From a bacterium (GTDB lineage Bacteria > Sysuimicrobiota > Sysuimicrobiia > Sysuimicrobiales > Humicultoraceae), in NCBI GenBank assembly GCA_041497675.1, contig JBGQGY010000003.1:335-64334 (forward strand): a stretch of 64,000 bases of DNA. The letters are read 5' to 3'. Positions 1-35,106 of this stretch are shown piece after piece. Both the position numbers and the translations under genes were made by a program. The notes beneath the pieces were generated by a model. The model had not been told where the DNA came from and did no database searches. It was given only the letters and a program-made list of their open reading frames with translations. The stretch's first letter is position 1. Each line of letters opens with the position of its first letter.

Positions 1-908
1 TTGTCCTCCCCCACCAGCCCCAACCGGTCGATGCCCACCAGCGCGGCCCGCTTGTCCAGGATCCGCATCACGACCTTCTCGCCGAAGACCGTCGGGATCG
101 TCGAGACCCGCAGGTCGATCTCCCGGCCGTCGACGCGCAGTTCGATGCGGCCGTCCTGCGGGAGGCGGCGCTCGGCGATGTTCATGTTGGCCATGATCTT
201 GATGCGGCTCACGCCGGCAGCCTGGACGTGCTTGGGCGCCGTCATCACATTGTAGAGCGTGCCGTCGATCCGATAGCGGATCCGTACCTGGTTCTCCTGC
301 GGCTCCACGTGGATGTCACTGGCGCCCTGCCGCACGGCTTGGACCAGCACGAGGTTGACCAGACGCACGACCGGAGCTTCGTCGACGATCTCGCGGAGCT
401 TGTCGAGCCCGGGCTCGTCTTCCCCGACCTCGGACGGCCGGATCTCCTGGATGACCTGATCCAACGAAGTTTCCAGCGCCGGGTACTGGTTGACCGCGTG
501 CAGGAACCCGTCTTGCGTGATGACGGCCGGAATGAGGTCGCGGTCGGCGATGCGGCGGATGTCATCCAGCGCCAGCACATCGAGCGGATCGACCATCCCG
601 AGCACGAGCGCTTCGCCTTCGGCGCGCAACGGTAGCACCTGATAGCGGCGGATCGCCTGCTCGGGCAGGATCGTCAGGATGTCCTCGGGGATGGTGGTCG
701 CCTGGACGTTCACGTACTCCATGTTCATCTGACTGGCGATCGCCTTGGCGATCGCCTCCGGCGTCGCCAGACCCATTTTGACCAACACTTTGCCCAGCCG
801 GTCGCCAGTCGCATTCTGGGCCTGCAGTGCCTGCTCCAGCTGCGCCTGGGTAATCAGACCGGCTTCGACCAGGACCTCGCCCAGCCGCACCCGCCGGCGA
901 GCGGTCAT
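1..908 (-). CDS. PilB/GspE-family secretion or type IV pilus assembly ATPase, N-terminal ~300 aa; 3' end runs off the window start
   Basis: Translated the minus strand from ATG at 908-906 by hand: MTARRRVRLGEVLVEAGLITQAQLEQALQ... (T2SSE_N-like) ...LVNLVLVQAVRQGASDIHVEPQENQVRIRYRIDGTLYNV...RIKIMANMNIAERRLPQDGRI...IPTVFGEKVVMRIL. About 65% identical over this stretch to the 3318..5654 paralog. Absent from the ORF track because it has no in-window stop. Confidence 0.85.
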   Translation of the reverse strand, partial: MTARRRVRLGEVLVEAGLITQAQLEQALQAQNATGDRLGKVLVKMGLATPEAIAKAIASQMNMEYVNVQATTIPEDILTILPEQAIRRYQVLPLRAEGEALVLGMVDPLDVLALDDIRRIADRDLIPAVITQDGFLHAVNQYPALETSLDQVIQEIRPSEVGEDEPGLDKLREIVDEAPVVRLVNLVLVQAVRQGASDIHVEPQENQVRIRYRIDGTLYNVMTAPKHVQAAGVSRIKIMANMNIAERRLPQDGRIELRVDGREIDLRVSTIPTVFGEKVVMRILDKRAALVGIDRLGLVGED

Positions 909-912
909 GCCT

Positions 913-1155
913 CTAGATGGTTTCATGACGCTCCATCAGCATGACGACGTGAGCCTTGTGCACCATGACGACGGACGCTTCGTAGAGCAGCCGGCCGTCG
1001 AGGGAGAACACCCGCGCAGACGTGATCGGCAGGAAGTCTTTGGCCGAGTTCAGCCGGTCAGAAATCCGCGCGGTCGAGGGCAGGTGCAGGTCGCCCTCGA
1101 TCCGGTGGTGCGGCGTGAACAGGATGACCTGTTCTCGGTCGAGCTCTGACTTCAT
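913..1155 (-). CDS. small conserved hypothetical protein (~80 aa), translationally coupled between MerR and the GspE ATPase
   Basis: Internal ATG start (MKSELDREQVILFTPHH...KAHVVMLMERHETI) within ORF 913..1263. The ATG overlaps the MerR stop (ATGA arrangement). No family recognised. Confidence 0.5.
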   Translation of the reverse strand: MKSELDREQVILFTPHHRIEGDLHLPSTARISDRLNSAKDFLPITSARVFSLDGRLLYEASVVMVHKAHVVMLMERHETI

Positions 1156-1433
1156 CGACCACTCCCACGGCCGTCCCCGGCCATTTCCACCGGGCGTGTG
1201 CTCTCGATCAACCGCTGGATGCCCTTGAGGCTCATGCCACGATCCACCATGGCCTTGACCCAACGGATGCGTTCGACATCGTCTTCACTATACAGGCGAT
1301 GGCCACCGCCGGTCCGGGCCGGGGAGAGCAGGTTGTACTGGTCCTCCCACGCTCGGATCCGCCGGGGGTTCACCCCGGTCAGGTGCGCGACCGTCCGGAT
1401 CGGATAGATCGGCGCGCGACGGTCCACAATCAT
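1152..1433 (-). CDS. MerR-family HTH transcriptional regulator
   Basis: YPIRTVAHLTGVNPRRIRAWEDQYNLLSPARTGGGHRLYSEDDVERIRWVKAMVDRGMSL matches the MerR N-terminal HTH pattern. Stop/start overlaps with both neighbours. Confidence 0.8.
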   Translation of the reverse strand: MIVDRRAPIYPIRTVAHLTGVNPRRIRAWEDQYNLLSPARTGGGHRLYSEDDVERIRWVKAMVDRGMSLKGIQRLIESTRPVEMAGDGRGSGR

Positions 1434-3007
1434 CGGCTTCCCCCTCCGCTTCCCGCCGCGCGCTGGGCTGTGGCCAGATCACGGTCGCGCGGTGGACCGT
1501 AGCCATGATCGCGCAGGTACGTGTAGATCTCCTGAAGTTTCGAGAACCCGTGAAAGTCGGGGCGATACTCCGATTCGAGCTTGTAGTCCAGTTCGACGTA
1601 CTTGTTCAGCGTCACGAAGAACGCATACTGGACGATGTTGGACGGCGCTTCAGGCGCGTCGCGGTTCTTGTCGATAAAGAGGTTGACGATGTCGACCTTG
1701 GGAAGATCGTCGGTGGCGAACCCCTCGGCCCGCGAGCGCGTCTCGATCAATTGCTGCAGGTCGTGGGTCGCCTTCCAGTCCTTGGCCAGCACCATCGCCA
1801 CGTCCAAGTCGTACTCGAGGTCGCCGGACCCCATGCTGTGGTGCATCGTCGGCCGGTTGAACGGGTTGAAGACCTCGCCTTCCTCCACCGGTCGCTCGTC
1901 GAGCCGACAGCCTTCTTTGTCCAGCGGCGAGATGGCAAAGATCGGGCAGTCGAGTTCGAGGCTCATCTCCGCCAGCGCGGTTGAGATTCGGTCCGTGCGG
2001 CCCTTCGAGTCGTCCAGGTGCTCGGGCAGCGGGATCTTTTGTAGGTAGTCAAAGAAGATGCAGATGTCCTGTGTCTGAAACTCCTGCATCAGGTTGTGGG
2101 CGTGCGCCCTGATCCGATCGAGTGTTTCCTTCCTGCCGGCCTCGACCAAATGCAGGAAGGGCCCGTAACGGGCGAGCTTGGACTGCGCCGAAGCGACTCG
2201 AGGACCGACCGGCCGGCCGTCCGTGTCGGCGCCGATCAAAATCGAGGTCGGGTTGAGACCGGTCTCTTTCGCGATGAGCCGCGCGGCCAAGACGCGCCGG
2301 GTTTGCTCCCACGTGTAATAGAGCACGGGGATCTTGTGGTTGACGGCCACGTGCACGGCCAGATCGAGCGCCAGGTTGGTCTTCCCGCGGCGCGGCGCGC
2401 CGGCAAGGCCATAGTAGAACCCGCGGCGCAGCCCCGAGAGCAGCGTGTTGAGCCGGTCGAAGGGGCTGATCGAAAACCCGAGGATCCCGTCACTGGCCAC
2501 CGGCCGCAATTCCAACAAGGGACTGAACGCCTCCGAGATCGGCGCCACCTGGCGCCGAATACGCCGCCGCTGGATCTCCATCAGATTGTGGACGCAGTCC
2601 GCCGTGAACTGCACGATGTCGGGGTGCTGGCCGTCCTGCCGGTACAGGTACCCACCGATCGATTCGTGGACTTGGCCGAGCAGGTCGCGGCTCTCGCGGG
2701 CTTTCAGCACGTCGACCTGGGCCATCGCCTCCCCGGCGCTCAACGGCGGGTTCTCGATCACGTTGGCCAGATACCGCTCCATCTCAGGCGTCAACAGGCC
2801 GCGGTCGACCAGATGGACGCGCAGGGTGGACTCATCGACGACGGCATCCTGGGCGGCGTAGAGGTCGATGATGACCTTGGCCAGCCGCCGCGCGAGTGGC
2901 GACGCCAGCAGATCAACATGAAACCCCTCCGTCGAGGCAAGGGTAATCAAATGCCGATCGCGGATAAATCCGCTAAGCAGACGGATTTCAATCTGGTACA
3001 GATCCAC
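1430..3007 (-). CDS. atypical DnaB-like helicase C-terminal domain (RecA-fold) ATPase, 525 aa
   Basis: Walker A GLAGAPRRGKTNLALDLAV, DnaB-like Walker B ICIFFDYLQKI, SGDLEYDLDVAMVL (compare DnaB SGSIEQDADVV). Has insertions and a long divergent C-terminal tail. Stop overlaps the MerR start, so it is the first gene of a four-gene minus-strand operon. Confidence 0.7.
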   Translation of the reverse strand: MDLYQIEIRLLSGFIRDRHLITLASTEGFHVDLLASPLARRLAKVIIDLYAAQDAVVDESTLRVHLVDRGLLTPEMERYLANVIENPPLSAGEAMAQVDVLKARESRDLLGQVHESIGGYLYRQDGQHPDIVQFTADCVHNLMEIQRRRIRRQVAPISEAFSPLLELRPVASDGILGFSISPFDRLNTLLSGLRRGFYYGLAGAPRRGKTNLALDLAVHVAVNHKIPVLYYTWEQTRRVLAARLIAKETGLNPTSILIGADTDGRPVGPRVASAQSKLARYGPFLHLVEAGRKETLDRIRAHAHNLMQEFQTQDICIFFDYLQKIPLPEHLDDSKGRTDRISTALAEMSLELDCPIFAISPLDKEGCRLDERPVEEGEVFNPFNRPTMHHSMGSGDLEYDLDVAMVLAKDWKATHDLQQLIETRSRAEGFATDDLPKVDIVNLFIDKNRDAPEAPSNIVQYAFFVTLNKYVELDYKLESEYRPDFHGFSKLQEIYTYLRDHGYGPPRDRDLATAQRAAGSGGGSR

Positions 3008-3192
3008 CGGGCAGTTCCCTCCGATATCGGAAATCGGGGATCGTGCCTGACCCGGACTCAGTCAACCCTCTCGCCGTGAACTTCCCAGGAACCTCTCTGA
3101 CGTTGGCTTGCCTCGGGCATAACCTTGTTGCGATTGTGTTCCAATCTTCATCCGGGCAAGTCAGAATATGCCCAGAAGATTGTGGGGCTAGT

Positions 3193-3275
3193 CACGAACG
3201 GGCAAACCCGGAGCGATTCGGGGGCGCAAAACTACGGGACCGGGGAATATACATACCGGTCCCTGTTTTTCTTGG
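3193..3275 (+). promoter_or_regulatory. c-di-GMP-I (GEMM) riboswitch-like element in the 5' leader of the GspE-family ATPase gene
   Basis: CACGAACGGGCAAACC-CGGA-GCGA-UUCGG-GGGCGCAAAACUACGGG then hairpin ACGGGACCGG-GGAAUAUACAUA-CCGGUCCC followed by UGUUUUUCUU. It has the GGCAAACC box, a GNRA-capped first hairpin and a GCGCAAA(G/A)C junction resembling the Vibrio Vc2 aptamer (GGCAAACC AUUC GAAA GAGU GGGACGCAAAGCC). The second hairpin plus U-tract could act as terminator. Confidence 0.6.
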
Positions 3276-3317
3276 GGCTGCTGCCACATGGCAAAACGGC
3301 ATGGGTGAGGGTACGCA

Positions 3318-5654
3318 TTGGATCGGTCCCCGGACGAAGGCGCCATCCAGACTCTGAAAGCTTCCGTTGGCCTGCCCGCGGAGAGCCTGACGCTCGAACG
3401 GGCTTTCCTTCATGCGGAGGCACGCCAGGCCATGCGGTCCGCACAATGGGAGACCGCGCGCGACGCGCTGCAGCGTCTAGCGGCGGCCGATCCAGAGGAA
3501 CCATGGGTCTGCTGGGACCTGGCGGCGGCGTGCCGGGCGCTCGAGGACCACGAAGGCGCAGCTCTCGCGTATCTGACCGCGGCCGACAAGCACCTGGCCC
3601 GCGGCGAGACCGACCAGGTCCTCCAAGCGTACCAGCAGGCCGCCGCGATCTCGCCAAATGATCCGCAGATTCAAGCCAAGCTGGCGGAACCAGCCCCACC
3701 TCCATCGCAGCCCTCGGCAAGCCGGCCGGCAAACGCTTCACCGCGACCGGCGCCGCCCGCCGCGACCACGTCGCCGGAGACCGGTGCGCGTGCCGTGCCG
3801 GAGCGCAGCGACGCTCCGGTATTGCCAACGCCTCCCGGGCCATCGAAGGCCGACAAGCGAGGGGCGGCGGCGCCCGATGCACCTCCCACACCACCCGCGC
3901 GCGAGCCCGTCGACCCAGCATCCCAGGCGGCGCGGGCACCGCGGCCGCGACTGGGCAGCAAAACCGAGACGCTGGGCCAGGTGCTCCAGCAACTGGGCAT
4001 CATCACCGCCCACCAACTCAACGAATCGCTCGAGATTCAGGCGCGCACCGGCGAGCGCATCGGGCAAATCCTGCGCGACATGGGCGTGATCAGCGACACC
4101 GACCTGGCGCGCGCCATGGCGCACCAGTGGGCCTACCCGTACCTCTCCCTGGCGGAGCGGCGGCCAGATACTGAGATCGTCAGGCTGATCCCGCACGCGC
4201 TGGCGATGCGGCACAAGTGCGTCGCCGTCGAGCGCGCCGGGGGCCGGCTGCTCGTCGCGATCAGTGATCCGCTGAACGTCATCGCCGTCGACGACGTCCG
4301 CCTCATCACCGGCATGGAAGTCGACCTCGCGGTCGCCACCGAAGAAGACATCACCACCGCGCTGGCGCGCGGCTATCAGCTGTCCGACACGACGATTGAG
4401 AAGGTCCTGCGCGAGTCCTTACCCGATTCTGCGGGGGATCTCGGCGATGAGGATGTCTCGATCGAGCAGCTGAAGGCGTTGGTTGAGGAAGCGCCTGTCG
4501 TCAAGCTCGTCAACCTCGTAGTGGATGAGGCGGTCAAGCAAGGCGCCAGCGATATCCACGTCGAGCCGCAGCGCAACGGCGTCTGGGTGCGGTTTCGCGT
4601 GGACGGGGTGCTGCGCGACGTGATGAACCCGCCTAAGCACCTGAAGTCGGCGCTCGTCTCGCGCATGAAGATCATGGCTGAGATGGACATCGCCGAGCGC
4701 CGTCGCCCCCAGGATGGGCGCATCCATCTGATCGCCGATGGCCGCAACATCGACCTGCGCGTCTCGACGCTCCCCACGATGTATGGCGAGAAAATCGTGA
4801 TGCGCATCCTGGATCAAGCCCAGACCATGATCGGGCTGACCCGGCTGGGCTTCCACAGTGATACGCTCCGACAGTGGGAGAGCTCGGTCAGCAAACCCCA
4901 CGGGATGGTGTTGGTCACCGGGCCGACCGGGAGCGGGAAGACGACGACCCTCTACGCCACGCTGAGCAAGCTCAACACGCCCGAACTCAATGTCGTGACG
5001 GTCGAGGACCCCGTCGAGTATCAGATCAGCCGTATCAACCAGGTCCAAGTGAACATTAAAGCCGGCATGACCTTTGCCACCGCGCTCCGGCACATCCTGC
5101 GCCAGGACCCAGACATCGTCATGGTCGGTGAGATCCGCGACAAAGACACGGCCGAGATCGCGGTGCAGGCCGCACTCACCGGCCACTTGGTCCTCTCAAC
5201 GCTCCACACCAACGACGCGGCGGGCGCGGTCACGCGGCTGGTCGACATGGGGGTTGAACCGTTCCTGATCAGCTCGTCGGTCATTGGGGTGCTGGCGCAG
5301 CGTCTCGCCCGGGCCATCTGCTCCCGTTGCAAGGTCGCCTACTCGCCGCCACCCGAAGCGCTCGGCCGTCTCGGTGCGGATGTGCGAATCGATTCCGATG
5401 TGACCTTCTATAGAGGCCAAGGCTGCGAGTCGTGCCGCGGCACCGGTTACCGCGGTCGGATCGGCATCTTCGAACTGCTGATCATCAGTGACGCCGTCCG
5501 CGACCTGGTTGTCCACAACGCCTCCTCCACCGAGATCAAGGCGCAGGCGATCCGTGAGGGCATGCGCACGCTGCGGGATGACGGCCTCGAGAAAGTCATG
5601 TCCGGCATCTCCACCATCGACGAGATCCTGCGGGTCGTGTACGTCCAGGACTGA
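3318..5654 (+). CDS. PilB/GspE-family ATPase with N-terminal TPR-like domain and Pro/Ala-rich linker (778 aa)
   Basis: T2SSE_N-like region (LGQVLQQLGIITAHQL...), Walker A GPTGSGKTT, Asp box, Walker B DPDIVMVGEIRD, His box LVLSTLHTND, tetracysteine CSRC...CESC. TTG start at 3318; ATG at 3432 is an alternative. N-terminal ~100 aa TPR-like, then low-complexity P/A-rich segment. Confidence 0.9.
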   Translation: MDRSPDEGAIQTLKASVGLPAESLTLERAFLHAEARQAMRSAQWETARDALQRLAAADPEEPWVCWDLAAACRALEDHEGAALAYLTAADKHLARGETDQVLQAYQQAAAISPNDPQIQAKLAEPAPPPSQPSASRPANASPRPAPPAATTSPETGARAVPERSDAPVLPTPPGPSKADKRGAAAPDAPPTPPAREPVDPASQAARAPRPRLGSKTETLGQVLQQLGIITAHQLNESLEIQARTGERIGQILRDMGVISDTDLARAMAHQWAYPYLSLAERRPDTEIVRLIPHALAMRHKCVAVERAGGRLLVAISDPLNVIAVDDVRLITGMEVDLAVATEEDITTALARGYQLSDTTIEKVLRESLPDSAGDLGDEDVSIEQLKALVEEAPVVKLVNLVVDEAVKQGASDIHVEPQRNGVWVRFRVDGVLRDVMNPPKHLKSALVSRMKIMAEMDIAERRRPQDGRIHLIADGRNIDLRVSTLPTMYGEKIVMRILDQAQTMIGLTRLGFHSDTLRQWESSVSKPHGMVLVTGPTGSGKTTTLYATLSKLNTPELNVVTVEDPVEYQISRINQVQVNIKAGMTFATALRHILRQDPDIVMVGEIRDKDTAEIAVQAALTGHLVLSTLHTNDAAGAVTRLVDMGVEPFLISSSVIGVLAQRLARAICSRCKVAYSPPPEALGRLGADVRIDSDVTFYRGQGCESCRGTGYRGRIGIFELLIISDAVRDLVVHNASSTEIKAQAIREGMRTLRDDGLEKVMSGISTIDEILRVVYVQD

Positions 5655-5698: not shown

Positions 5699-5738
5699 GA
5701 GGAGCCGGCGCGGTCACGCCGGCTCCTCGGTGTTGTGT
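5699..5738. terminator. bidirectional intrinsic terminator between convergent genes
   Basis: GAGGAGCCGGCG-cggtca-CGCCGGCTCCTC 12-bp stem followed by GGTGTTGTGT on plus, with CCTTTT on the minus side. Confidence 0.6.
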
Positions 5739-5747
5739 AGAGCGCCG

Positions 5748-6104
5748 CTAGACGAGCGCGGCAGCCAGCTGGCTGTTACGCCGCATCTCCAACCGGATGC
5801 GACCGAGATTGGCCTGTTTGCCGCCGACGACCACCATCATGGCGTCGGGGCCCGCCGGGCCGACCGCGATCGGACCGTCATCGTACTCGAGCAACATGCT
5901 GCGCATCGCCCCCCGGCTCATTTCGCGTCCCATCGAATCCGCCGCGGCCATGCTGCTGGCCACGATGGCGCCAACGGCCTCCAGGTCGATGGCCTCTTCA
6001 CTCGTCATCCCCTCGACGACAAACCCATCCCGGCCAACGACCAGGACGGCGACGACCCCCTCGACTTTGGCCAGGTCGCTGATGACATCCTTCAGCTGCG
6101 ACAT
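5748..6104 (-). CDS. Roadblock/LC7 (MglB-like) domain protein
   Basis: MSQLKDVISDLAKVEGVVAVLVVGRDGFVVEG...AIDLEAVGAIVASSMAAADSMG...MMVVVGGKQANLGRIRLEMRR matches the Roadblock/LC7 pattern. Internal ATG at 6104 with upstream AGGAGGGGAA; the longer ORF 5748..6248 is an antisense-style extension. Confidence 0.8.
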   Translation of the reverse strand: MSQLKDVISDLAKVEGVVAVLVVGRDGFVVEGMTSEEAIDLEAVGAIVASSMAAADSMGREMSRGAMRSMLLEYDDGPIAVGPAGPDAMMVVVGGKQANLGRIRLEMRRNSQLAAALV

Positions 6105-6153: not shown

Positions 6154-6969
6154 CTACAGTGTTCCGTGCGACGGTACGCCCATGACACCCCGCAGTTTGG
6201 TGAGCGCTGAGGCCAGCACCCGCGAGACATGTTTCTGCGAGATGCCAATTCTCTTTGAGGCTTCGGTCTGGGTGAGATCGGTGTAGAACAGGTAGTAGAC
6301 GACCTTGCGCTGTAGCGAGTTCAGGGATTCCATCGCTTCGACCAGCATCACGCGATCTTCTATGGGTAACTGGAAGCTGATGTGGGATCGGTGCTTGATG
6401 CGCTCTCGGTCGACGCGCAGGTCGCCGCCCTCTTCTTCGGTCTCAAGGGAGATCGTCCGGAGGGCCTCACGGGTACGCAGCACCTCGAGCAGCCCTTCCT
6501 CTTCGATATTGAGCTCGGAGGCCAGCTCTTCCAGCCCGGGAAACCGCCCCTCTTCCGCAACGTATTTGCCGACGGTGTCCTCGATCTGGGTGTTGAGCTT
6601 CTGCAGCCAGCGCGGTTTCCGAATCGTGTCGCGCTGATCCCGCAGGTAATGGCGGATCTCGCCGCGGACCAGATAGCTCGCGTACGTCGCGAACTTCGCG
6701 CCCCGCGTCGGATCGAAGGCCGCGATGGCATTGAGCAACCCGATGTACCCCACCTGCACGAGATCGTCGGTCGGAACACCCGAGAACACAAATTCTGAGG
6801 CGATGCGCCGCACCAGCGGCGTGCACGCGTGGACGACTCGTTCTCGGATCGCTGGGTCGGGGCTCTCGACGTACTGGGCCATCAATACATCTTCGTTCTC
6901 GTGCTCGGTCACACGGGGTGTGATCTGCTCTTGTCGAACCGGTGCGCGTTGCGCGCTGCGGACTGCCAT
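6154..6969 (-). CDS. RNA polymerase sigma factor, sigma-70 family group 3 (SigB/SigF/FliA-like)
   Basis: Region 2 DLVQVGYIGLLNAIAAFDPTRGAKFATYASYLVRGEIRHYLRD; region 4 HTH LTQTEASKRIGISQKHVSRVLASALTKLR. GGAGG lies 6 nt upstream of the ATG at 6969. Confidence 0.85.
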   Translation of the reverse strand: MAVRSAQRAPVRQEQITPRVTEHENEDVLMAQYVESPDPAIRERVVHACTPLVRRIASEFVFSGVPTDDLVQVGYIGLLNAIAAFDPTRGAKFATYASYLVRGEIRHYLRDQRDTIRKPRWLQKLNTQIEDTVGKYVAEEGRFPGLEELASELNIEEEGLLEVLRTREALRTISLETEEEGGDLRVDRERIKHRSHISFQLPIEDRVMLVEAMESLNSLQRKVVYYLFYTDLTQTEASKRIGISQKHVSRVLASALTKLRGVMGVPSHGTL

Positions 6970-6980
6970 CGTGCCCCTCC

Positions 6981-7022
6981 GAGGAAAAAAGATAAGTCCT
7001 CTCGAGCTGCCCCAAGAGGACC
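6981..7022 (-). terminator. intrinsic terminator forming the expression platform of riboswitch A
   Basis: Minus-strand RNA: AGGUCCUCU-UGGGGCAGCUCG-AGAGGACU UAUCUUUUUUCC, immediately before RBS GGAGG and the sigma factor ATG. Confidence 0.6.
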
Positions 7023-7031
7023 TGATGTTCT

Positions 7032-7110
7032 CCCTTCGGCAGCCCGGCCAACCGTGACGGTCCCGGAGCTTTGCGCCCCCACCTTGCGATGGGTTTGCCC
7101 TTTCGAGGAT
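7032..7110 (-). promoter_or_regulatory. c-di-GMP-I (GEMM) riboswitch-like aptamer A, leader of the sigma factor/Roadblock operon
   Basis: Minus-strand RNA: UCGAAAGGGCAAACC-CAUC-GCAA-GGUGGGG-GCGCAAAGCUCCGGGACCGUCACGGUUGGCCGGGCUGCCGAAGGG. GGCAAACC box, GCAA GNRA-capped hairpin, GCGCAAAGC junction. About 85% identical to element B at 12046..12140. Confidence 0.7.
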
Positions 7111-7149
7111 CGCTATTCAGTTAGAAGAAGACCACAAACCCTTACTGAC

Positions 7150-7181
7150 CTTAGTTTACATCATTCTTAGTTTAGATCATT
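7150..7181. repeat. 16-bp tandem direct repeat (cttagttta[c/g]atcatt x2) in an AT-rich island upstream of riboswitch A
   Basis: Read directly: ccttagtttacatcatt / cttagtttagatcatt. About 45-60 nt upstream of the riboswitch 5' end, so likely in the promoter. Local GC falls well below the window average. Confidence 0.6.
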
Positions 7182-7257
7182 GAGAACATTTCTGCAAGCT
7201 CTGTGTCAGAAATTGTACCCACCCTCGGACCCGTTTAGACCTCCCTGACCGGTAATC

Positions 7258-8199
7258 TTACCGGGCCGCGGATGCCCCCGCCGCGGGACGGGATCGGCTG
7301 ACGTACTTGAACGCCAGTCGGTGTGAAACCAGTGCCTCCAGAATGCCCCCGACTTGGGCCGGCGTCAAGCCCGTTTCGGAGGCAATCTCGGCCAGGGTGT
7401 GCGCGCCGTCGAGGAGACGCAGAACCGTCCCGGTGACGCCGTTGCTCACGACCCCGGCGAGCTCCGCGGCGACGTCCGAAGGCAGATTCTCCGCGACACC
7501 CGGCGATAGCAGATACCGTGCCTCCCGGGCGAACCGGCCGAAAACAGCTTCCAGTTCCCGCGACGGCGCTGCGGGCGGTGGCGGCGCGACCTCAGGCTGC
7601 GCACCCGCCTCCTCGACCGCGGCGACCTTGATCGCCGGGACCTCGATCACCGGGACGTCAACCGGCGCAGCGTCGACGGGCGCAACGTCGGCGGGCGCAG
7701 CGTCGACCACCGCAATGGGTTCTGAGGCCGGCGTGACGACTGAGACTGTCTGCGCCTGCAGCGAGCCGGTGATGACGATGATCCATCCCCTGGCCTGCTT
7801 CATGACGGCGCCAGACGTCGCTGCCGACGCCGGCTCGATGACGGCGAGCGCTCCCCCATTGAGGTCCAGCACCGCTGGTTTGGGTCCGAGCACGAGCACT
7901 ACGGCGCTCGCTTGGTCAGACTGTAGACGGGCGATGTAGCGGTCGAGGTGGACGAAGTCAGTATGCAGCGCCGCGCCTGAAAATTCTAGTGACGCGATCC
8001 GCTCCACGACGTCCTTGCGCAGCCGTAACTGAGCGGATTCCGCGCGGGCCGGTGGACCATCGGCGAACACCGCATCCGGCGCGCCGACATGCCAGCCGCT
8101 GGGCCCAAAGACCGCCGCGCAGGGCGTCGATGCTTCGAAAATCGCCGCCACGCCTCCGAGCCAAGCGTAATGAGTAATCCTGGCAGTCGCGGCGGCCAC
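7258..8199 (-). CDS. hypothetical protein with C-terminal HTH-like segment and internal (APVDA)n low-complexity repeat
   Basis: 313-aa ORF with uniform codon use. C-terminal ...VLRLLDGAHTLAEIASETGLTPAQVGGILEALVSHRLAF resembles a winged-helix/HTH. Last gene of the riboswitch-B operon; start is 4 nt after the upstream stop. Confidence 0.55.
   Translation of the reverse strand: MAAATARITHYAWLGGVAAIFEASTPCAAVFGPSGWHVGAPDAVFADGPPARAESAQLRLRKDVVERIASLEFSGAALHTDFVHLDRYIARLQSDQASAVVLVLGPKPAVLDLNGGALAVIEPASAATSGAVMKQARGWIIVITGSLQAQTVSVVTPASEPIAVVDAAPADVAPVDAAPVDVPVIEVPAIKVAAVEEAGAQPEVAPPPPAAPSRELEAVFGRFAREARYLLSPGVAENLPSDVAAELAGVVSNGVTGTVLRLLDGAHTLAEIASETGLTPAQVGGILEALVSHRLAFKYVSRSRPAAGASAAR
7664..7708. 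repeat. 15-bp tandem repeat x3 (ggcgcagcgtcgacg) inside the CDS
   Basis: ggcgcagcgtcgacg / ggcgcaacgtcggcg / ggcgcagcgtcgacc, coding APVDAAPVDAAPVD on the minus strand. Confidence 0.7.
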
Positions 8200-8202
8200 G
8201 AC

Positions 8203-8979
8203 TCAGATGTCCTCCTGTACCGTCCGCTGCCAGAAACCACCCAGCGCGAGAAAGACGAAGCCCGCCACCCACAGCGCATTGATCGTGTGGACTTCCGAGT
8301 AGAGTTCGTACCAGCTGAGAAACGCGTAGCCCAGACTGGCGACCGCCAGACAGAGCGCCGAGGCGGCGACGGCCAGCCAGGTATATGCCGAGGTGCCGCC
8401 GCGAAACCCGACGGCGGGTAGCAACCCCGCGGGCACGAGAAAGACCGCGATGGTCGGATAGAAGACCGCCAGCACCTTCACCGTTGTCGGCGCCGGACTG
8501 GCCATGATCGGGCTCACGATGAACTCGAAGCCAAGCGCCCACCCCACGACACCGAGTCCCACCAGCGCGAGGCGGACCGGGCGATCGACCATTGGTGCAA
8601 CCAACCGGATCTCCAGACCGAGGGCGAGACCAAGCAGCAGGTAGAAGACGACGAAGAACCCGTCGGCGATCGACGGGTACGGCAGTGCCCGTCCCCCCCA
8701 CCATTGGTAGAACGCAAAGACCCCGCGGCCGGCCGCCCAGGCTAGCGCCGCCAGCCCCCCGATGGACCACACCGCGCGCTCGCGATCGCCCGACACGTAG
8801 GCGCGTCGAGCCGCGAGGCACCCGATACCGGCAAGGATCGGCGCAACGATCTGAACTGCCGAGCCCAGCACGTGTCGGGCCAGGCGGCCCTGGAGGCTGG
8901 TTTCTGCCGCACCGTACGCGTAGGCGGCGGCCAGGACAAGGCCGCCCATGACGATGAGCAGCACGCGAAAACGCTTCAT
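8203..8979 (-). CDS. integral membrane protein, ~7 predicted TM helices (258 aa), unknown function
   Basis: MKRFRVLLIVMGGLVLAAAYAY... followed by multiple hydrophobic stretches. ATG at 8979 overlaps the upstream stop (ATGA). The longer 353-aa ORF has an Arg-rich N-terminal extension that looks like antisense or out-of-frame readthrough. Confidence 0.65.
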   Translation of the reverse strand: MKRFRVLLIVMGGLVLAAAYAYGAAETSLQGRLARHVLGSAVQIVAPILAGIGCLAARRAYVSGDRERAVWSIGGLAALAWAAGRGVFAFYQWWGGRALPYPSIADGFFVVFYLLLGLALGLEIRLVAPMVDRPVRLALVGLGVVGWALGFEFIVSPIMASPAPTTVKVLAVFYPTIAVFLVPAGLLPAVGFRGGTSAYTWLAVAASALCLAVASLGYAFLSWYELYSEVHTINALWVAGFVFLALGGFWQRTVQEDI

Positions 8980-9830
8980 CGAGCCGCTCCGGAGTCGCCG
9001 GCACCTGCCGCGTCGCGTTCGGCTGCGGCAATCGCCCGGTCGACGAACGCACGACCGGCGACGGCGATGATCGGTTCGCACGCCGTCTCGACGATGACCC
9101 GCCACGACGCCTCGGAGATCGGAGGCGCATACACGCGGGTTCCGTCGACCCGGCCGCCATGCGGCGCGAGCGCGGCGGCGAGCGTCGATGTGAACCGCTG
9201 GGCGAGCCGCTGGCCGCGATGACGCGCTACCCGTTCGGCCACGCCTTCCATGGTGCGCGGCCACGGTCGGGTCGACGCCTCAACGGGGGCCACGGGTTCC
9301 GTCGCCACCACGCGCTCGCCGGCAGCAGTCGCTCGCGCTGGCGGCGCTTCGCTCACCGGGGCGACCGGCTCGACGACCGGCGGAGCGGTCACCACCTCAG
9401 CCACCTCCGCCGGCTCAACCGCTGGCATCGACTGCGACGTCACGAGGCTCTGCCCTGGGACTTTGAAGACCGTCGCCGGGGCTGCGGACGGTGGGCCCGC
9501 CGCCTGTCCGAAGGCGACGTCTGGCGGCGCGCCCACATACACGCTCAGCGTCGAACCGTTTGACGCCATCTCGCGGAAGAGGTCGTGCCCGCCGGCACCG
9601 GCCAGCACGGCCTCTCCGCCGTCAACGTCAAAGAACCAGGCGTCCTGCGCCTCGCCCTCGTGCACCCAGACCAGGCTCTCCATTTCGAGGTCGGCGAGGT
9701 AGATGCCGCCTTCAAACCCGCGGCCGATCAAATGCGCCAGCAGCCCGTCGATATCCACCGCATCGCCGGGGAAGTCGGTGACTAAGGCCGGTCCGGCCCG
9801 GAGCACTTCGAGTGCTTGACGCCGGTTCAC
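8976..9830 (-). CDS. hypothetical protein, DUF4388-like N-terminal motif (tentative), Pro/Ala/Val-rich middle
   Basis: GDAVDIDGLLAHLIGRGFEGGIYL resembles the DUF4388 G-x-x-x-F-x-L-x-D-L-L-Q-x-L...G-x-L signature as I recall it. Probable GTG start at 9830, with AGGAG 5 nt upstream and 8 nt after the TAXI gene stop. Confidence 0.5.
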   Translation of the reverse strand: MNRRQALEVLRAGPALVTDFPGDAVDIDGLLAHLIGRGFEGGIYLADLEMESLVWVHEGEAQDAWFFDVDGGEAVLAGAGGHDLFREMASNGSTLSVYVGAPPDVAFGQAAGPPSAAPATVFKVPGQSLVTSQSMPAVEPAEVAEVVTAPPVVEPVAPVSEAPPARATAAGERVVATEPVAPVEASTRPWPRTMEGVAERVARHRGQRLAQRFTSTLAAALAPHGGRVDGTRVYAPPISEASWRVIVETACEPIIAVAGRAFVDRAIAAAERDAAGAGDSGAAR

Positions 9831-9838
9831 GTGAGCTC

Positions 9839-10810
9839 CTACTTGATGCCTCGCTCCCTGTAGAAACGCAGAGCGCCGGCATGCATCGTAATTGGCATCC
9901 CCGAGCGTGACGTGTTGGTCGTAATGTCCTTGCCGCGCGCATGGGCGGCCTGCAATCGGTCGGTGTTGGTCCACAGCGCCGAGGTCAACGTGTAGATCAG
10001 GGCTTCCTCGATGTCCTGACGCGTCACCAGCATCGCCATCACCGCTGCGGTATCCACTGACTCGGTCTGGCCCTTGTAGGTGTTGGCCGGTACCGTCACG
10101 CGTGTGTAATAGGGGTACTGCTCGCGCAGCATCTCCACGACGTCTCTTGGGATCGCCAGGACCTTCAGGTCGCGGCTGGACGCGATATCCTGTACAGCCG
10201 CTGTCGGGAACCCCGCTGTAATGAACGCCGCGTCGATCACGCCATCCTTCAACTGATCGGCGGCCTCGGCGAAGTTCAGGAAGTCCGGCCGCGTGTTGTA
10301 ATAGCCGAGTTCAAACGCGCGGAGAATCTGACGCGCGTTGATCTCGGTGCCGCTGCCCGGCGCGCCGACGGCGATGCGCTTGCCCTTGAGATCGGCGATC
10401 GAATTGATGTTCTTGGACTTCAGCGTGACGACCTGAATCGTCTCCGGATACAACATCGCCATGCCTCGAAGATTCGCGATCGGCTGGGTCTTGTTGGCGA
10501 CGCGATCCATAAACATCTCGGTCCCGTGGAAGGCGTAGTAGGTGATATCGTTCTGGATGAACGCCACCGCCACGTCGCTCCGCTGTAGCAGGCGGATGTT
10601 GGCGACCGAGGCGCCGGACGTCTGCGCCGTCGCCTGGACGTTTGGCACCTTGCCGCTCCACACTTCCGCCAGCGCCGCGCCCAACGGGAAGTAGACACCC
10701 GCCGTGCCGCCCGTTGCAATGGCGACAAACGTGCGCTGTTGGGCCATGGCGGGCCAGACGGCTACGCTGAGCACCGCCAGTATGACGATTCCGAGTGTGA
10801 TCCGACGCAT
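9839..10810 (-). CDS. TAXI-family TRAP transporter solute-binding protein (orphan, no DctQM permease adjacent)
   Basis: Signal peptide MRRITLGIVILAVLSVAVWPAMA; VAIATGGTAGVYFPLGAALAEV matches the TAXI signature. Start codon choice among M1, M9 and M16 is uncertain. Confidence 0.8.
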   Translation of the reverse strand: MRRITLGIVILAVLSVAVWPAMAQQRTFVAIATGGTAGVYFPLGAALAEVWSGKVPNVQATAQTSGASVANIRLLQRSDVAVAFIQNDITYYAFHGTEMFMDRVANKTQPIANLRGMAMLYPETIQVVTLKSKNINSIADLKGKRIAVGAPGSGTEINARQILRAFELGYYNTRPDFLNFAEAADQLKDGVIDAAFITAGFPTAAVQDIASSRDLKVLAIPRDVVEMLREQYPYYTRVTVPANTYKGQTESVDTAAVMAMLVTRQDIEEALIYTLTSALWTNTDRLQAAHARGKDITTNTSRSGMPITMHAGALRFYRERGIK

Positions 10811-11997: not shown

Positions 11998-12036
11998 GTG
12001 AACACAAAATGCCTTTCGGCCGCCTGCCGAAAGGCA
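11998..12036 (-). terminator. intrinsic terminator forming the expression platform of riboswitch B
   Basis: Minus-strand RNA: AUGCCUUUCGGC-AGGCG-GCCGAAAGGCAU UUUGUGUUC. Perfect 12-bp stem plus U-tract, 15 nt before the SBP ATG. Confidence 0.65.
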
Positions 12037-12045
12037 TACCACGCC

Positions 12046-12140
12046 TGCCCCTTCGGCAACCCGGCCGGCCGCGCGGTTGGACGTCCCGCGCGCCCCCGTG
12101 GCTTTGCGTCCCCACCTTGCGATGGGTTTGCCCGTTCGGA
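12046..12140 (-). promoter_or_regulatory. c-di-GMP-I (GEMM) riboswitch-like aptamer B, leader of the SBP/DUF4388/7TM operon
   Basis: Minus-strand RNA: CCGAACGGGCAAACC-CAUC-GCAA-GGUGGGG-ACGCAAAGCCACGGGGGCGCGCGGGACGUCCAACCGCGCGGCCGGCCGGGUUGCCGAAGGGG. It has the GGCAAACC box, a GNRA-capped hairpin and GGGACGCAAAGCC, which matches the Vc2 junction exactly. Confidence 0.75.
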
Positions 12141-12261
12141 GGCTCTATGCAGTTTGCGGTGCTACCTTTTCTCTACCCCGCCGCGGCTTCGCCTAGACCT
12201 CTGCCTACCCTCCAACAGATGTCCCGAGAGTTGCGGCAGGGTTCCTCCAAGAAGCCATACG

Positions 12262-13191: not shown

Positions 13192-13547
13192 CCCAGTTGC
13201 TCCACGATCTCGGCCTTCCGGCGCCGTATCTGCAGCCGTGCCCGGGCCAGATTGCCGCCGGCATCGAGCACGGTCGCCACATAGTGTATCTGGCTCACCG
13301 CCATCACCAAGACCGCCAGGCTTTCGGTCGTGAGCGTCACGTAGTCCAGATCCCCGCCCTCGAGCTTCCGAGTGCAATAGGCCCCCACTTTGATCAGCGC
13401 GGCCAGGTCGACACTGGCTTTGGAGAGGTCGCTCGGGCCGCCCTTCGTCACCGCCTCGATGACAGTACCATCCATTGCCACGACCGCGGCGGCACGCGTG
13501 TCGTCGCCCACGAGCTCCTGCAAGATGCCTCTTAGTTTGGTTCCCAT
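13188..13547 (-). CDS. Roadblock/LC7 (MglB-like) domain protein, second copy
   Basis: MGTKLRGILQELVGDDTRAAAVVAMDGTVIEAV...VDLAALIKVGAYCTRKL...LAVLVMAVSQIHYVATVLDAGGN. Start taken at M47 of the listed ORF; M33 at 13589 is an alternative. Confidence 0.75.
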   Translation of the reverse strand: MGTKLRGILQELVGDDTRAAAVVAMDGTVIEAVTKGGPSDLSKASVDLAALIKVGAYCTRKLEGGDLDYVTLTTESLAVLVMAVSQIHYVATVLDAGGNLARARLQIRRRKAEIVEQLG

Positions 13548-13651
13548 GCTCGGCCCCGGGCGGCCGTCAGTGTTCGCCAATGACCCCATGCCTCCTGCCG
13601 AGAAGAGGAATTGTCGATGGCGGCATCGTAGCATCGCCCGGGGAAGGTGAC

Positions 13652-14620
13652 ATGCACACCGCGTTGATCGAACGCATCCGCACACATCGCCGGATCCTGA
13701 CCAGCCGTTGGTCGAAGGCCCTGAAAGAGGCCCCCGGCGCGAACCCGTGGTGGCAAGACACTGAACGGACCGATCGACTCCTGTTCGCCGGCCTTGAAGC
13801 CCTGATCGAGGCCGTGAGCTCCGGCAACGATGAGTTGTTCGTCGCCTTCGCCTCGCGCCTCAGCCAGGAGGCCTTCGCGCTCCAGGTTCCACCCAATGTC
13901 GTCATCCGCGCCATCCTGACCGGAAAGGTCATTGTCACCGAGTTCCTGACCGAACCCGACTCCTCGCCTGGCCTCGACGTCGCCACCGTGCAGTCGCTCG
14001 ATCGGGTCGTCTCCGCCGGCATCCTCGAAGGGATCCGGCGGCACGAACGACAGCGCGAACGCCGGCTGCTCACCGCGCAAGAGCAGCTCGAGCAGCTGCG
14101 CGACCGCCTCCGCCGTCAGGTCGTTGTCGACCCGGCGACGGGTCTCTACAACGCCAACTACTACTCGATCGCCGTGCGCCGCGAAGTTCGCCGTAGCCAG
14201 CGGTTCGGCCGCGTCTTTTCGCTCGCCCTCGTCGCCCCCGACAAAGATGACGGGGTCCGCGACGCCTGGGGCGACGAAGGTCTGCGTGCCGTGTCGATCA
14301 CACTCGCCGACATCCTGACCCGCTGCACCCGGCAGGTCGATCTGCGGGCGGCGCTCGGCGGCGTCCGCTTCGGTCTGATCCTGCCTGAAACGCCGATGGA
14401 GGGCGCGTTCGTGCTCGCCGAGCGCATCCGCGTCGCGGTCGAACAGCAGGCGTTCACACTCCCCGATCACCCATCCCCCGTGACACAGACTGTCAGTATC
14501 GGGCTGGCGAGTTTCCCCCGCGATGCCGAAGATGACCGAGGGATGCTCTCCCGGCTCGAAGAGGCCCTGGCGCGCGCTCGCGGTGGCGGCAACACGACCG
14601 TCGCTGCCGCGTCGGCATAG
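13652..14620 (+). CDS. GGDEF-domain protein with degenerate active site (GGVRF) and intact RxxD I-site; probable c-di-GMP receptor
   Basis: DPATGLYNANYYSIAVRREV...RQVDLRAALGGVRFGLILPET. RQVD lies 5 aa before GG(V)(R)F. Internal ATG (MHTALIERIRT) chosen because the upstream part of the ORF overlaps the divergent Roadblock gene. Confidence 0.75.
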   Translation: MHTALIERIRTHRRILTSRWSKALKEAPGANPWWQDTERTDRLLFAGLEALIEAVSSGNDELFVAFASRLSQEAFALQVPPNVVIRAILTGKVIVTEFLTEPDSSPGLDVATVQSLDRVVSAGILEGIRRHERQRERRLLTAQEQLEQLRDRLRRQVVVDPATGLYNANYYSIAVRREVRRSQRFGRVFSLALVAPDKDDGVRDAWGDEGLRAVSITLADILTRCTRQVDLRAALGGVRFGLILPETPMEGAFVLAERIRVAVEQQAFTLPDHPSPVTQTVSIGLASFPRDAEDDRGMLSRLEEALARARGGGNTTVAAASA

Positions 14621-14641: not shown

Positions 14642-16264
14642 TTATCGCTCCCGCCACAGGCGTAGTTGCACTTCGAACGGCGGTTTTACCTGCAGCACCC
14701 TGAGAAACACGTCGACCAGTTCCGGATCCAGCGTCGTCCCGGCCAGCGCACGCAGTTCATCCATCGCTTCGGCGACGGTCCGGCCACGGCGGTACGGACG
14801 GTCGGATATCATCGCATCAAACGTCTCTGCCACGCGTATGATGCGGGCACCCAGCGGAATCGCGTCGCCCGCAAGCCCGTCCGGGTAGCCGCTGCCGTCG
14901 TACGCTTCTTGATGGTGCTTCACGTCGTCAACCAGCGGACGAAACGGCGCCATCTCGCGGAGAATGGCCGCGCCGCGTTCGGGGTGCTGGTTCATCGCCT
15001 TGCGCTCGTCATCGCTGAGCGCGGCGCGCTTGCGCAGCACGCCCTCCGGCGCGCTGATCTTCCCGATATCATGGAGGAGGCTCGCCCACTGGATGCGCTC
15101 AACCTCTCCAGGGGGCAGGCCGATCTCCGTCGCGACGGCCACCGCATTGGCGGCCACGCGCTGTGAGTGCCCCTGCGCGTAGGGATCCTTGGCCTCCAGC
15201 GCCGCAGCCAGGGTGTTCACGGCGCTCAGCAAGAACTCACGCGATTGACTGTGCATTTGCGCGTCATGCAATGGAGGCGACGCCATCTCGGCCAGGGTAT
15301 ACGTCGCGCCCAGATGCTCGTCCCTGAAGAGCCGGATCCCGCGCCGTGCCAAGTGCACCACGCCAAACGATCGCTCGGCCGCGCGCAGCGGCACGAGCAG
15401 CGCCGATCCCGTCGCATCGTCGCCAAATACGCTCACCCACCGTGCGTCCGTCGACGCGTCGACGACCAGTTGTGGCAGACCGGAGCGCATGGCCTCCTCG
15501 ACCACGGCCGCTGAGTCCAGCACCTCTCCACGCGCGCGGAGCCTGCCGGCGGCGTCGAGACCGGCTTCGATGACCAGCCGCTGCTCGATATCCAGCACGG
15601 CGACCAGTCCGTAGTCCGCGTCGGCCAGATGCAGCGACCGATCGAGGAGCCTGCGGGCGCGATCGGCCAACGGCTGCCCGGCCATGGCGGTCAAGGTCGC
15701 GTGGATCTGCGCGGACACGTGCACGCGCCGGTTGAGTTCCTCGGCGCCGCGCAGCGCCGATTGCATCGCTTCAGTACGACGCTGTTCCATGAACCCGACG
15801 AGCAGTCCGATCAGCATCAGCAGCGCGGCCCTGGGGAGGATCCCCGCGGCAGGTTGGGAGTGGAGCGTAATCGCGGCCGCGTACCCCAGGGCAGAGACCC
15901 AACCGCCGACGACTCCCGCCACCAGACCGCGCCCGGCCGTCCCCCAGATCAGCACCGGCACATAGAAGAAAAAGAAGAAGCTCGTCATCCCGCCGGTCTC
16001 GCCCACGAGCAAGGACACGATGAGTAGCTCGAGGATCGTGCCGACGTAGGAGGCGACGTGCGGCCCAGACTGGCTGGGCGCCAGCGCGCTCAGCAGCCCG
16101 GCTGGGAACAGGAGCAATAGGAGAAGCGCGGAGGTGAGGCTGGGGCTCGCACGGTCGGTCTGTGTCCCGATCAACAGGACCGAAAACCCAAACAGTACCG
16201 CCAACCCGCGGAGATAGAGCGCCCACCATTCGAAGGGGGCCTTCTGGGCCGCCGATTTCATCAC
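14642..16264 (-). CDS. membrane-anchored GAF/HD-GYP c-di-GMP phosphodiesterase
   Basis: N-terminal multi-TM region, a GAF-like middle, HD (LHDIGK) and HHEAYDGSGYP (HD-GYP signature). Confidence 0.8.
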   Translation of the reverse strand: MMKSAAQKAPFEWWALYLRGLAVLFGFSVLLIGTQTDRASPSLTSALLLLLLFPAGLLSALAPSQSGPHVASYVGTILELLIVSLLVGETGGMTSFFFFFYVPVLIWGTAGRGLVAGVVGGWVSALGYAAAITLHSQPAAGILPRAALLMLIGLLVGFMEQRRTEAMQSALRGAEELNRRVHVSAQIHATLTAMAGQPLADRARRLLDRSLHLADADYGLVAVLDIEQRLVIEAGLDAAGRLRARGEVLDSAAVVEEAMRSGLPQLVVDASTDARWVSVFGDDATGSALLVPLRAAERSFGVVHLARRGIRLFRDEHLGATYTLAEMASPPLHDAQMHSQSREFLLSAVNTLAAALEAKDPYAQGHSQRVAANAVAVATEIGLPPGEVERIQWASLLHDIGKISAPEGVLRKRAALSDDERKAMNQHPERGAAILREMAPFRPLVDDVKHHQEAYDGSGYPDGLAGDAIPLGARIIRVAETFDAMISDRPYRRGRTVAEAMDELRALAGTTLDPELVDVFLRVLQVKPPFEVQLRLWRER

Positions 16265-34896: not shown

Positions 34897-35106
34897 TCTT
34901 CGCGTCCTGCCCCACTCAGAAGTTCCCCCGAACGTCGGTGTCAATTGCCTAGCGACTCCCAAGAGATTCTTGCAGCCCGCTCAGCCCCCCGAACGGGAGA
35001 GTACCCGCCGCTCGGAGGATGGTCGTTCGAGCAGGACTCGCCTACCTTTGAGAACACTTAGGCTTTCGTGGTGGTGGCCGGAACGACCCCGAAAGGAGCT
35101 GCGCCG

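Follow-up and report, generated by a model that had tools for sequence, protein, structure and literature searches.

Can a single RNA element place a whole sigma-factor regulon under the control of a second messenger? The question is raised by a 64,000-nucleotide stretch of contig JBGQGY010000003.1 (assembly GCA_041497675.1, positions 335 to 64,334), here called the window, which carries a small sigma-factor operon of an uncultured hot-spring bacterium. The operon lies on the reverse strand and consists of two genes, one for an alternative sigma factor and one for a Roadblock/LC7 protein. Its 5′ leader contains a class-I cyclic di-GMP (c-di-GMP; GEMM-I) riboswitch aptamer followed by an intrinsic terminator. 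The reading of this leader in which we have considerable confidence is that of a class-I c-di-GMP OFF riboswitch, where binding of the ligand leads to termination ahead of both genes.

The aptamer and its ligand pocket

Several properties identify the aptamer. A cmscan of the 64-kb window against Rfam gives a match to RF03167 (c-di-GMP-I-GGC, clan CL00126) at 7034..7108 (-). The match spans the entire model (positions 1–80 of 80) and reaches 63.5 bits, the gathering score being 59 (E=1.2e-12 for the 64-kb window), and it was repeated on the sub-region. Our own covariance model R1, made from related aptamers, scores 89.9 bits at 7030..7112 (-) and 84–101 bits across 12 orthologous leaders; the RF03167 scores of the orthologous aptamers are 61–72 bits. 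The second aptamer of the window, riboswitch B, is matched by RF01051 itself, at 57.5 bits, and has a P1a nearly identical to that of the sigma-leader aptamer. The stretch 7030..7112 is thus a real class-I c-di-GMP riboswitch aptamer, and its structure is that expected of the class. GEMM-I RNAs have a first hairpin with 2-bp and 6-bp stems divided by an internal loop of 3 nt and closed with a GNRA tetraloop, and an AAA linker leads to the second hairpin (PMC1950547). The window sequence of the first hairpin and linker, GC-AAA-CCCAUC-GCAA-GGUGGG-GGC-GC-AAA-GC, has this layout. Its loop is of the GYRA type and is found without a tetraloop receptor, which is the usual combination in GEMM (PMC1950547).

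Covariation gives the same picture. In an alignment of 19 related aptamers fitted to the covariance model, standard pairs are present in 95.6% of pair cells, compensatory changes occur at 10 pairs, and none of 500 shuffles reaches the observed value. P1 was also checked by eye; in some rows MAFFT had misplaced the P1 5′ strand, as well as part of the terminator 3′ arm.

The nucleotides that contact the ligand in Vc2 are G20, A47 and C92 (PMC4744006, PMC5888326). Their counterparts in the sigma leader, assigned from the consensus lines of RF01051, RF03167 and RF03168 together with PMC4744006, are at 7099, 7072 and 7039 (Vc2 numbering: 20, 47 and 92); all three are canonical and invariant in the 12 leaders. 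The consensus lines of the three Rfam families differ at three positions, which are these same ones: position 20 is the base before the GC of GGCAAAC, position 47 the first after ACGC, and position 92 the first C of UGCC. As deduced from the three lines, the names of the variants appear to spell the pocket triplet, G-A-C in the canonical family and G-G-C or U-A-U in the variants. The G47 that would define a GGC variant (consensus ACGCGAAG instead of ACGCAAAG) is not present in the window or in any orthologue, all of which have GCGCAAAGC with A47. Because position 47 is A, and positions 20 and 92 are G and C, the sequence falls outside the variant definition and the pocket is canonical; the predicted ligand should therefore be c-di-GMP.

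Two observations weigh against this assignment and would fit a variant aptamer with altered specificity, whether an orphan GGC RNA or one that senses another cyclic dinucleotide. The top Rfam family is the GGC variant and not RF01051, whose score is hidden by clan competition, and the highly conserved A43 is replaced by G (7076) in all sigma-leader aptamers. A signal other than c-di-GMP nevertheless appears quite unlikely. The RF03167 label is uninformative here because many A47 aptamers in the metagenome set also exceed its threshold, and A47 rather than the GGC-defining G is found in 12 of 12 leaders. Riboswitches for c-AMP-GMP (GEMM-Ib) typically carry A20, a definition that reportedly goes back to Kellenberger and to Nelson in 2015; all leaders have G at 7099. 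Position 43, for its part, toggles between A and G. Riboswitch B has A in the window and G at locus L009, riboswitch C has G in the window and A at locus L002, and at least 120 matching stretches in metagenomes have the G43 form. G43 is thus a common variant and probably a tolerated, neutral change. Its neighbour C44 (7075) is present and invariant. C44 and G83 form the universally conserved interhelical pair of class-I aptamers (PMC4744006). A G is found at the place expected for G83, in the bulge of the second hairpin 3′ strand (UGGCC), and is a candidate partner of C44.

The Rfam result also has a bearing on annotation. A47 aptamers that score above the RF03167 gathering threshold out-compete RF01051 within the clan, and automatic annotation therefore mislabels compact canonical c-di-GMP-I aptamers as a variant. 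The 'GGC variant' label falls on many aptamers with a canonical pocket.

Terminator, antiterminator and the direction of control

Downstream of the aptamer, a terminator scan finds AGGTCCTCTTGGG-GCAG-CTCGAGAGGACTT at 7023..6994, a hairpin of 13 pairs followed by ATCTTTTTT. Over nine leaders, 85% of the cells of the stem pair, a count that is an underestimate because of MAFFT misregister in some rows. Compensatory changes are seen at five pairs, and the covariation score was reached in 0 of 500 shuffles. Exchanges in the leader alignment that keep the pairing include GGUCCUCU/AGAGGACU, GAUCCCC/GGGGAUU, CAGCCUCU/AGAGGCUG and ACCUC/GGAGGU. The stem, in other words, is free to change as long as it pairs, and the apex is not: GGGGCAGCYC is conserved, which is unusual in terminators. 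The conservation appears to arise because the apex is complementary to the invariant aptamer 3′ strand GGGCUGCC.

This complementarity yields an antiterminator. The RNAalifold consensus of the expression-platform alignment is the antiterminator helix itself, with 8 pairs in 9 of 9 sequences, and changes on its 3′ side are wobble-compatible only. It is extended by a second helix between the P1 3′ strand (GGGAG) and the terminator 5′ arm (CUCUU). The antiterminator excludes the aptamer, i.e. P1 and P1b, as well as the terminator; aptamer and terminator can form together, since they do not overlap. According to RNAfold, the two antiterminator helices together amount to -18 to -27 kcal/mol in all 10 leaders, about equal to the terminator. 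Before the terminator 3′ arm is made, the antiterminator is favoured over the unliganded aptamer by 4–15 kcal/mol in 10 of 10 leaders, and when a transcript that reaches only as far as the apex (the decision point) is folded without constraints, it comes out as the minimum-energy structure in 8 of 10; these comparisons are indicative only, as ViennaRNA includes neither the tertiary contacts of the aptamer nor kinetics. As the antiterminator is more stable than the unliganded aptamer, ligand would be needed for termination.

A preliminary description, made from the window sequence alone, had placed a c-di-GMP aptamer with a terminator at 6981..7110, ahead of the gene for a group-3 sigma factor that shares its transcript with a Roadblock gene. 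Its coordinates and quoted stem sequences are correct. The aptamer is borne out by the full-length Rfam match above the gathering score, by the R1 model and by covariation, and its combination with a terminator by the covarying stem and the conserved antiterminator. Folding with RNAfold, which the description had proposed as a way of finding an alternative pairing, does point to a conserved one, between the aptamer 3′ strand and the terminator 5′ arm and apex. Comparative evidence, given below, supports the two-gene operon under this leader.

The switch is proposed to work as follows. In the ligand-free RNA, CUCUU-GG-GGCAGCUC would find its partner in the 3′ half of the aptamer (GGGCUGCC...GGGAG). 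The antiterminator would then occupy the terminator 5′ arm and apex, RNA polymerase would read through, and sigma factor and Roadblock protein would be made. With c-di-GMP bound, P1 and P1b would keep the 3′ strand within the aptamer, and the hairpin 7023..6994 could form ahead of the U-run to stop transcription about 20 nt before the start codon. High c-di-GMP would thus mean less sigma factor and a lower regulon, with read-through as the default state. The OFF direction probably holds, judging from the layout of the competing helices. It would be in keeping with Clostridioides difficile, in which class-I riboswitches with terminators act as OFF switches (PMC6366702).

Besides the indicative nature of the folding energies, a few points weigh against this scheme. 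Ligand binding and termination are both predictions. The U-tracts are weak at L003, L006 and L201, and at L202, the most distant orthologue, the terminator differs in sequence and the 8-bp antiterminator is not evident. The leaders of L202 and of L128, a metagenome locus described below, do not have the same terminator/antiterminator design, and they could instead be taken to mean that the aptamer is functional with another logic, either as an ON switch or at the level of translation, by pairing of the P1 5′ strand with the GGAGG ribosome-binding site. Class-I ON switches exist, e.g. Bc2 (PMC6366702), and the full-length minimum-energy fold of the window leader does pair the P1 5′ strand (CCUC) with the GGAGG region. 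However, the other leaders are not predicted to fold in this way. The hairpin and U-run are conserved and covarying, terminator and aptamer can form together, and the sole conserved alternative is pairing of the terminator 5′ arm and apex with the aptamer 3′ strand, a classic OFF layout. An ON or translational logic is therefore considered unlikely.

A different doubt is whether the element regulates the sigma gene at all. It could be a stand-alone short RNA that acts as a c-di-GMP sponge, as a riboswitch-containing non-coding RNA (merRNA) is known in Bdellovibrio, or it could be the 3′ end of the upstream operon, whose genes lie on the same strand and have a GEMM riboswitch of their own; the sigma gene would then have a downstream promoter of its own. 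This is very unlikely. The U-run is followed after only some 15 nt by the start codon, and so there is no room for a sigma promoter downstream, whereas conserved promoter elements sit upstream of the aptamer. In addition, the conserved antiterminator makes sense only if read-through matters, and the element strictly co-occurs with the sigma–Roadblock pair. The transcription-terminating OFF switch remains the preferred interpretation, and the features on which it is built are collected in Table 1, together with the other features of the region.

Table 1. Features of the sigma–Roadblock operon, its leader and the surrounding region (positions in the window)
Feature	Position	Strand	Basis or detail
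Class-I c-di-GMP (GEMM-I) aptamer	7030..7112	-	Rfam RF03167, own model R1, pair statistics
P1	7109..7104 with 7038..7031	-	
P1a	7098..7073	-	loop GCAA
P1b	7070..7041	-	
Intrinsic terminator	6985..7023	-	13-bp hairpin 7023..6994, loop GCAG, then AUCUUUUUU (6993..6985); terminator scan, covariation
Antiterminator (predicted)	7004..7045	-	GGGCUGCC (7045..7038) with GGCAGCUC (7011..7004); GGGAG (7034..7030) with CUCUU (7018..7014)
Conserved leader box	7114..7122	-	AACTGAATA (consensus AACTGCATA), 4 nt 5′ of P1; alignments A1 and A2
Sigma-70-like promoter (predicted)	7169..7197	-	TTGCAG-17 nt-TAAACT, predicted start near 7162
Promoter-like element	7215..7241	-	GGTCTA-N15-GGGTAC, about 25 nt upstream of the sigma-70-like promoter; candidate autoregulatory promoter
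Shine-Dalgarno sequence	6976..6980	-	GGAGG, 6 nt before ATG (6969..6967); read from the sequence
Alternative sigma factor, SigB/SigF/SigG-like (group 3)	6154..6969	-	271 aa; Pfam, NCBIfam, PDB relatives
Roadblock/LC7 (MglB-like) protein	5748..6104	-	118 aa; Pfam Robl_LC7, 2.9e-15
Operon-end hairpin terminator, bidirectional, shared with convergent ATPase gene	5699..5728	-	terminator scan, 13 pairs on both strands
Riboswitch B, c-di-GMP-I	12052..12142	-	RF01051, 57.5 bits; terminator ~12040..12000
GTCTA-N15-GGGTA motif of riboswitch B	12174..12198	-	
Riboswitch C, GEMM-like, partly degenerate	3188..3293	+	own model, 37 bits, E=6e-7 in 639-kb search
GGDEF protein	13475..14620	+	
GAF-HD_5 (HD-GYP-type, phosphodiesterase-like) protein	14642..16264	-	

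The operon, its promoters and its conservation

The sigma gene product passes the Pfam cutoffs for Sigma70 regions 2 and 4, and region 3 scores 22.7 bits against a cutoff of 25.3. Its best NCBIfam family is TIGR02980 (SigBFG), with 179.7 bits, below the cutoff of 234.35; FliA/WhiG scores 107.9 bits. The closest solved structures are sigma-F (1l0o_C) and 8x6g_H, a chain of 256 aa that bears just the label 'RNA polymerase sigma factor'; the WhiG structures 7lq4 and 6pfv are also among its relatives in the PDB. Homologues carry the JGI label 'RNA polymerase sigma-B factor'. A flagellar FliA role was considered and rejected on account of the better SigB/F/G score, and it is also disfavoured by the distribution of flagellar genes, which are reported in two Sysuimicrobiota families only, Humicultoraceae not being one of these.

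The PDB relatives of the second protein are Roadblock, CvnB and MglB. Co-transcription of its gene with the sigma gene is supported by the comparison of loci. The conserved neighbour of the sigma gene is Roadblock/LC7 and not a set of partner-switching regulators; among the genes at 0.7–22.7 kb that were scanned with Pfam, neither an RsbW/SpoIIAB-type anti-sigma kinase nor a STAS antagonist was found.

Orthologues of the sigma factor that are 75–94% identical are found in metagenome-assembled genomes labelled Armatimonadota and 'Candidatus Fervidifonticultor'. The latter is a genus of the family Humicultoraceae within the candidate phylum Sysuimicrobiota (CSP1-3). The layout is kept in all 12 orthologous sigma–Roadblock loci with upstream DNA (68–94% protein identity). 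The aptamer lies 70–260 nt before the sigma start at loci L001–L007, L009, L037, L201 and L202, of which the last two are 68% identical, and a purine-rich equivalent of GGAGG is present in all aligned leaders. The Roadblock gene is directly downstream of the sigma gene at every orthologous locus that reaches that far, i.e. all but L037. The layout is not general for SigB/F-like genes, because no GEMM aptamer was found near some 70 more distant sigma homologues from Armatimonadota-labelled metagenome-assembled genomes, Bipolaricaulota, Collinsella, cyanobacteria and others. Both aptamer and Roadblock gene are absent at L010–L036, L038–L080, L203 and L204, the last two being 54–55% identical, and the aptamer-less set includes paralogues at 48–55% identity.

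At the 68% identical locus L201 (3836..6816), the sigma and Roadblock genes are followed by genes for a 145-aa protein, a pilin-like protein with an N-methylation motif, and a DUF4900 protein. This gene order, too, hints at a connection with type IV pili, a subject taken up below.

A 10-locus upstream alignment (A2) shows strong conservation of the 150 nt that lead up to the aptamer. Transcription would start at a sigma-70-like promoter (7197..7169), whose pattern TTGCAn-N17-TAnnnT is present at all 10 loci of A2; L201 has TTGCGC-17-TATCAT. A simple consensus scan does not report this promoter because its threshold is strict. An additional start is possible at the promoter-like element 7241..7215, where the GTCTA and GGGTA/GGGCA blocks are invariant in A2. 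Sigma-B promoters of Bacillus subtilis have the form GTTTAA-N12-14-GGGTAT, and mycobacterial SigF promoters GGTTT-N15-17-GGGTA. GGTCTA-N15-GGGTAC resembles both; by this analogy it may serve as a promoter and may be recognized by a sigma factor of the SigB/SigF type.

The motif is found in association with riboswitches. GTCTA-N13-17-GGGYA has two matches in the 64-kb window, against 0.26 expected, and both are just upstream of GEMM aptamers, those of the sigma operon and of riboswitch B. A motif of this type is present at all 10 close orthologous loci. Among the matches listed, it also precedes 6 of 115 metagenomic G43-type aptamers, against 0.004 expected per aptamer, and in these six its spacing is always 45–47 nt before GGCAAACC. 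L201 and L202, the two most distant orthologues, lack the strict motif ahead of the aptamer, and the idea of autoregulation is based on the closer ten loci. With this scope, its occurrence before both riboswitches hints that the sigma gene is autoregulated.

Between the promoter and P1 lies a further conserved element, the box AACTGCATA. It is found 3–8 nt before P1 in riboswitch leaders A (that of the sigma operon) and B, in the latter at 12146..12154 (-), and also at L001–L009, L201 and L202, with the variants AACTGAATA and AAGTTCATA. No conserved pairing partner of the box was found in the aptamer, the terminator or the start of the open reading frame.

A separate observation concerns 7175..7215 (-), which comprises the promoter spacer (AATGTTCTCGATGGTC) and a TCTGACnCAGA sequence between the two promoter-like elements. 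It is conserved beyond what promoters need, and the excess conservation suggests an operator for a DNA-binding protein.

Known systems, related loci and the surrounding island

RNA class, ligand and terminator mechanism are all textbook knowledge; what is unusual is the direct wiring to a sigma gene. The nearest precedent is Cd1 (Cdi-1-3) of C. difficile, a class-I riboswitch that controls the flgB operon including sigD, and thereby toxin genes (PMC6366702). As in Cd1, a class-I aptamer is followed by an intrinsic terminator, the proposed action is OFF, and the transcript encodes a group-3 sigma factor (PMC6366702). The two differ in that sigD is of the FliA type and internal to a 23-kb flagellar operon, whereas here a dedicated operon of two genes begins with the sigma gene, whose product is SigB/F-like and paired with Roadblock, and the host belongs to the candidate phylum Sysuimicrobiota. 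Vc2 of Vibrio cholerae, upstream of the tfoX-like gene tfoY, likewise places a class-I aptamer directly before the gene of a master regulator. In contrast to the present locus, the regulator, TfoY, is no sigma factor, and Vc2 has another expression platform.

In Streptomyces, c-di-GMP glues the anti-sigma factor RsiG to sigma(WhiG), and a developmental regulon is controlled at the protein level. Both there and in the scheme proposed here c-di-GMP lowers the output of a group-3 sigma factor; here the control would be exerted at the RNA level, and there is no adjacent anti-sigma gene. Another comparison is offered by C. difficile Cdi-2-4/pilA1, where a c-di-GMP riboswitch sits on type IV pilin genes, as will be seen to be of interest for several metagenome loci. 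Cdi-2-4 is a class-II ON switch, and the window riboswitch differs from it also in preceding a sigma gene and not a pilin gene.

The preliminary description had regarded sigma factors as an undescribed class of GEMM-controlled genes. This was overstated, as Cd1 controls sigD. What stands is that no paper on a GEMM leader dedicated to a sigma gene was found, nor any on riboswitches in this phylum, and that the word sigma is absent from the original GEMM paper; the literature coverage was incomplete and such absence is weak evidence. The claim of novelty is further weakened by two unrelated metagenome contigs in which a GEMM aptamer is located directly before a sigma open reading frame of the FliA/WhiG family. 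One is L128 (aptamer at 692..779, 76.5 bits; open reading frame 880..1632), whose leader has no obvious intrinsic terminator, and the other L093 (aptamer at 6387..6487, 71 bits; open reading frame ~6516..7334), where an HD_5 (HD-GYP-like) gene comes after the sigma gene. The present locus differs in that the sigma gene follows the leader immediately and is essentially its sole target, that the sigma factor is SigB/F-like and paired with Roadblock, and that the arrangement is fixed within a lineage whose phylum is uncultured.

A link to type IV pili is suggested by five metagenome loci (L081, L101, L140, L183 and L188) that combine, in this order, a PilC-like gene, a SigB/F-like sigma gene, a GTCTA-type motif, a GEMM aptamer and a prepilin gene (GFTLIELL). 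Their sigma factors are 36–40% identical to that of the window, except at L188, which is partial (86 residues at 43%), and L101, L140 and L183 are three of the six metagenome loci with the motif at 45–47 nt. These are the loci for which Cdi-2-4/pilA1 is the appropriate comparison. They support, but do not prove, recognition of GTCTA-type promoters by this sigma family, autoregulation of the sigma gene in the window and a tie between the family and type IV pili. The regulon of the window sigma factor is possibly linked to type IV pili in the same way, and its gene possibly autoregulated. The recurrence of a SigF-like sigma family, the GTCTA-N15-GGGTA motif and GEMM riboswitches beside pilin genes in independent metagenome lineages makes for a testable hypothesis of how c-di-GMP is connected to type IV pilus or surface behaviour in bacteria other than the model organisms.

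If the leader does act as proposed, one RNA element would suffice for c-di-GMP to govern a complete sigma regulon, without a protein receptor, in an uncultured and globally distributed phylum, and the riboswitch would be a handle with which to define both the output of the messenger and the sigma regulon. A more far-reaching circuit can be imagined, although we consider it doubtful at present. In it, GTCTA-N14/15-GGGTA promoters would allow the SigF-like sigma factor to switch on its targets as well as its own gene, the sigma gene and at least some of the target transcripts would carry c-di-GMP OFF riboswitches directly behind such a promoter, and Roadblock would be a new sigma partner. Such double gating would have c-di-GMP act on the regulator as well as on the regulated genes, a coherent feed-forward loop with positive autoregulation from which a sharp or bistable switch could result. 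The sigma factor would perhaps be specialised for type IV pili or surface behaviour, and Roadblock would replace the usual pair of anti-sigma and anti-anti-sigma factors. This possible double gating and the sigma–Roadblock pairing are the parts that merit an experiment.

The operon is part of a compact c-di-GMP island at 3.1–16.3 kb, with housekeeping genes on its flanks. The genes of c-di-GMP metabolism near the sigma operon, those for the GGDEF protein, the GAF-HD_5 protein and an ATPase with an MshEN domain, speak for c-di-GMP as the signal; an SLT/TPR protein is also encoded within the island. Riboswitch B looks like an OFF switch as well, because the 5′ arm of its terminator is the complement of the 3′ strand of its aptamer. 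Three genes without a Pfam match (8976..9974, 8203..~8973 and 7258..8199) form its conserved targets, and in the window two genes for solute-binding proteins are inserted before them. One of the three products is a 313-aa protein, for which no match was found in NCBIfam or the PDB either. This protein, encoded upstream of the sigma operon, has a helix-turn-helix-like segment at its C-terminus.

Riboswitch C precedes an open reading frame (3318..5654, +) for the MshEN-domain ATPase, a TPR-MshEN-T2SSE protein (PilB/MshE-like) whose gene is convergent with the sigma operon. Its best Rfam match is the UAU variant, at 36 bits and well below threshold. A U-run stands in place of the C92 region and of the second hairpin's 3′ strand, with GGGGCUGCUGCC further on, whereas P1a is preserved. 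The orthologue at L002 (7691..7772, -) is by comparison a canonical c-di-GMP-I aptamer with 52 bits. Riboswitch C may be decaying or may have been re-wired.

Just past the ATPase gene, genes are found for a DnaB_C/AAA_25 (KaiC/RadA-like) ATPase (1430..3007, -) and for a MerR-family regulator (1152..1433, -). A prepilin-like open reading frame (35068..35523, +) adjoins a tRNA gene (35540..35614, -).

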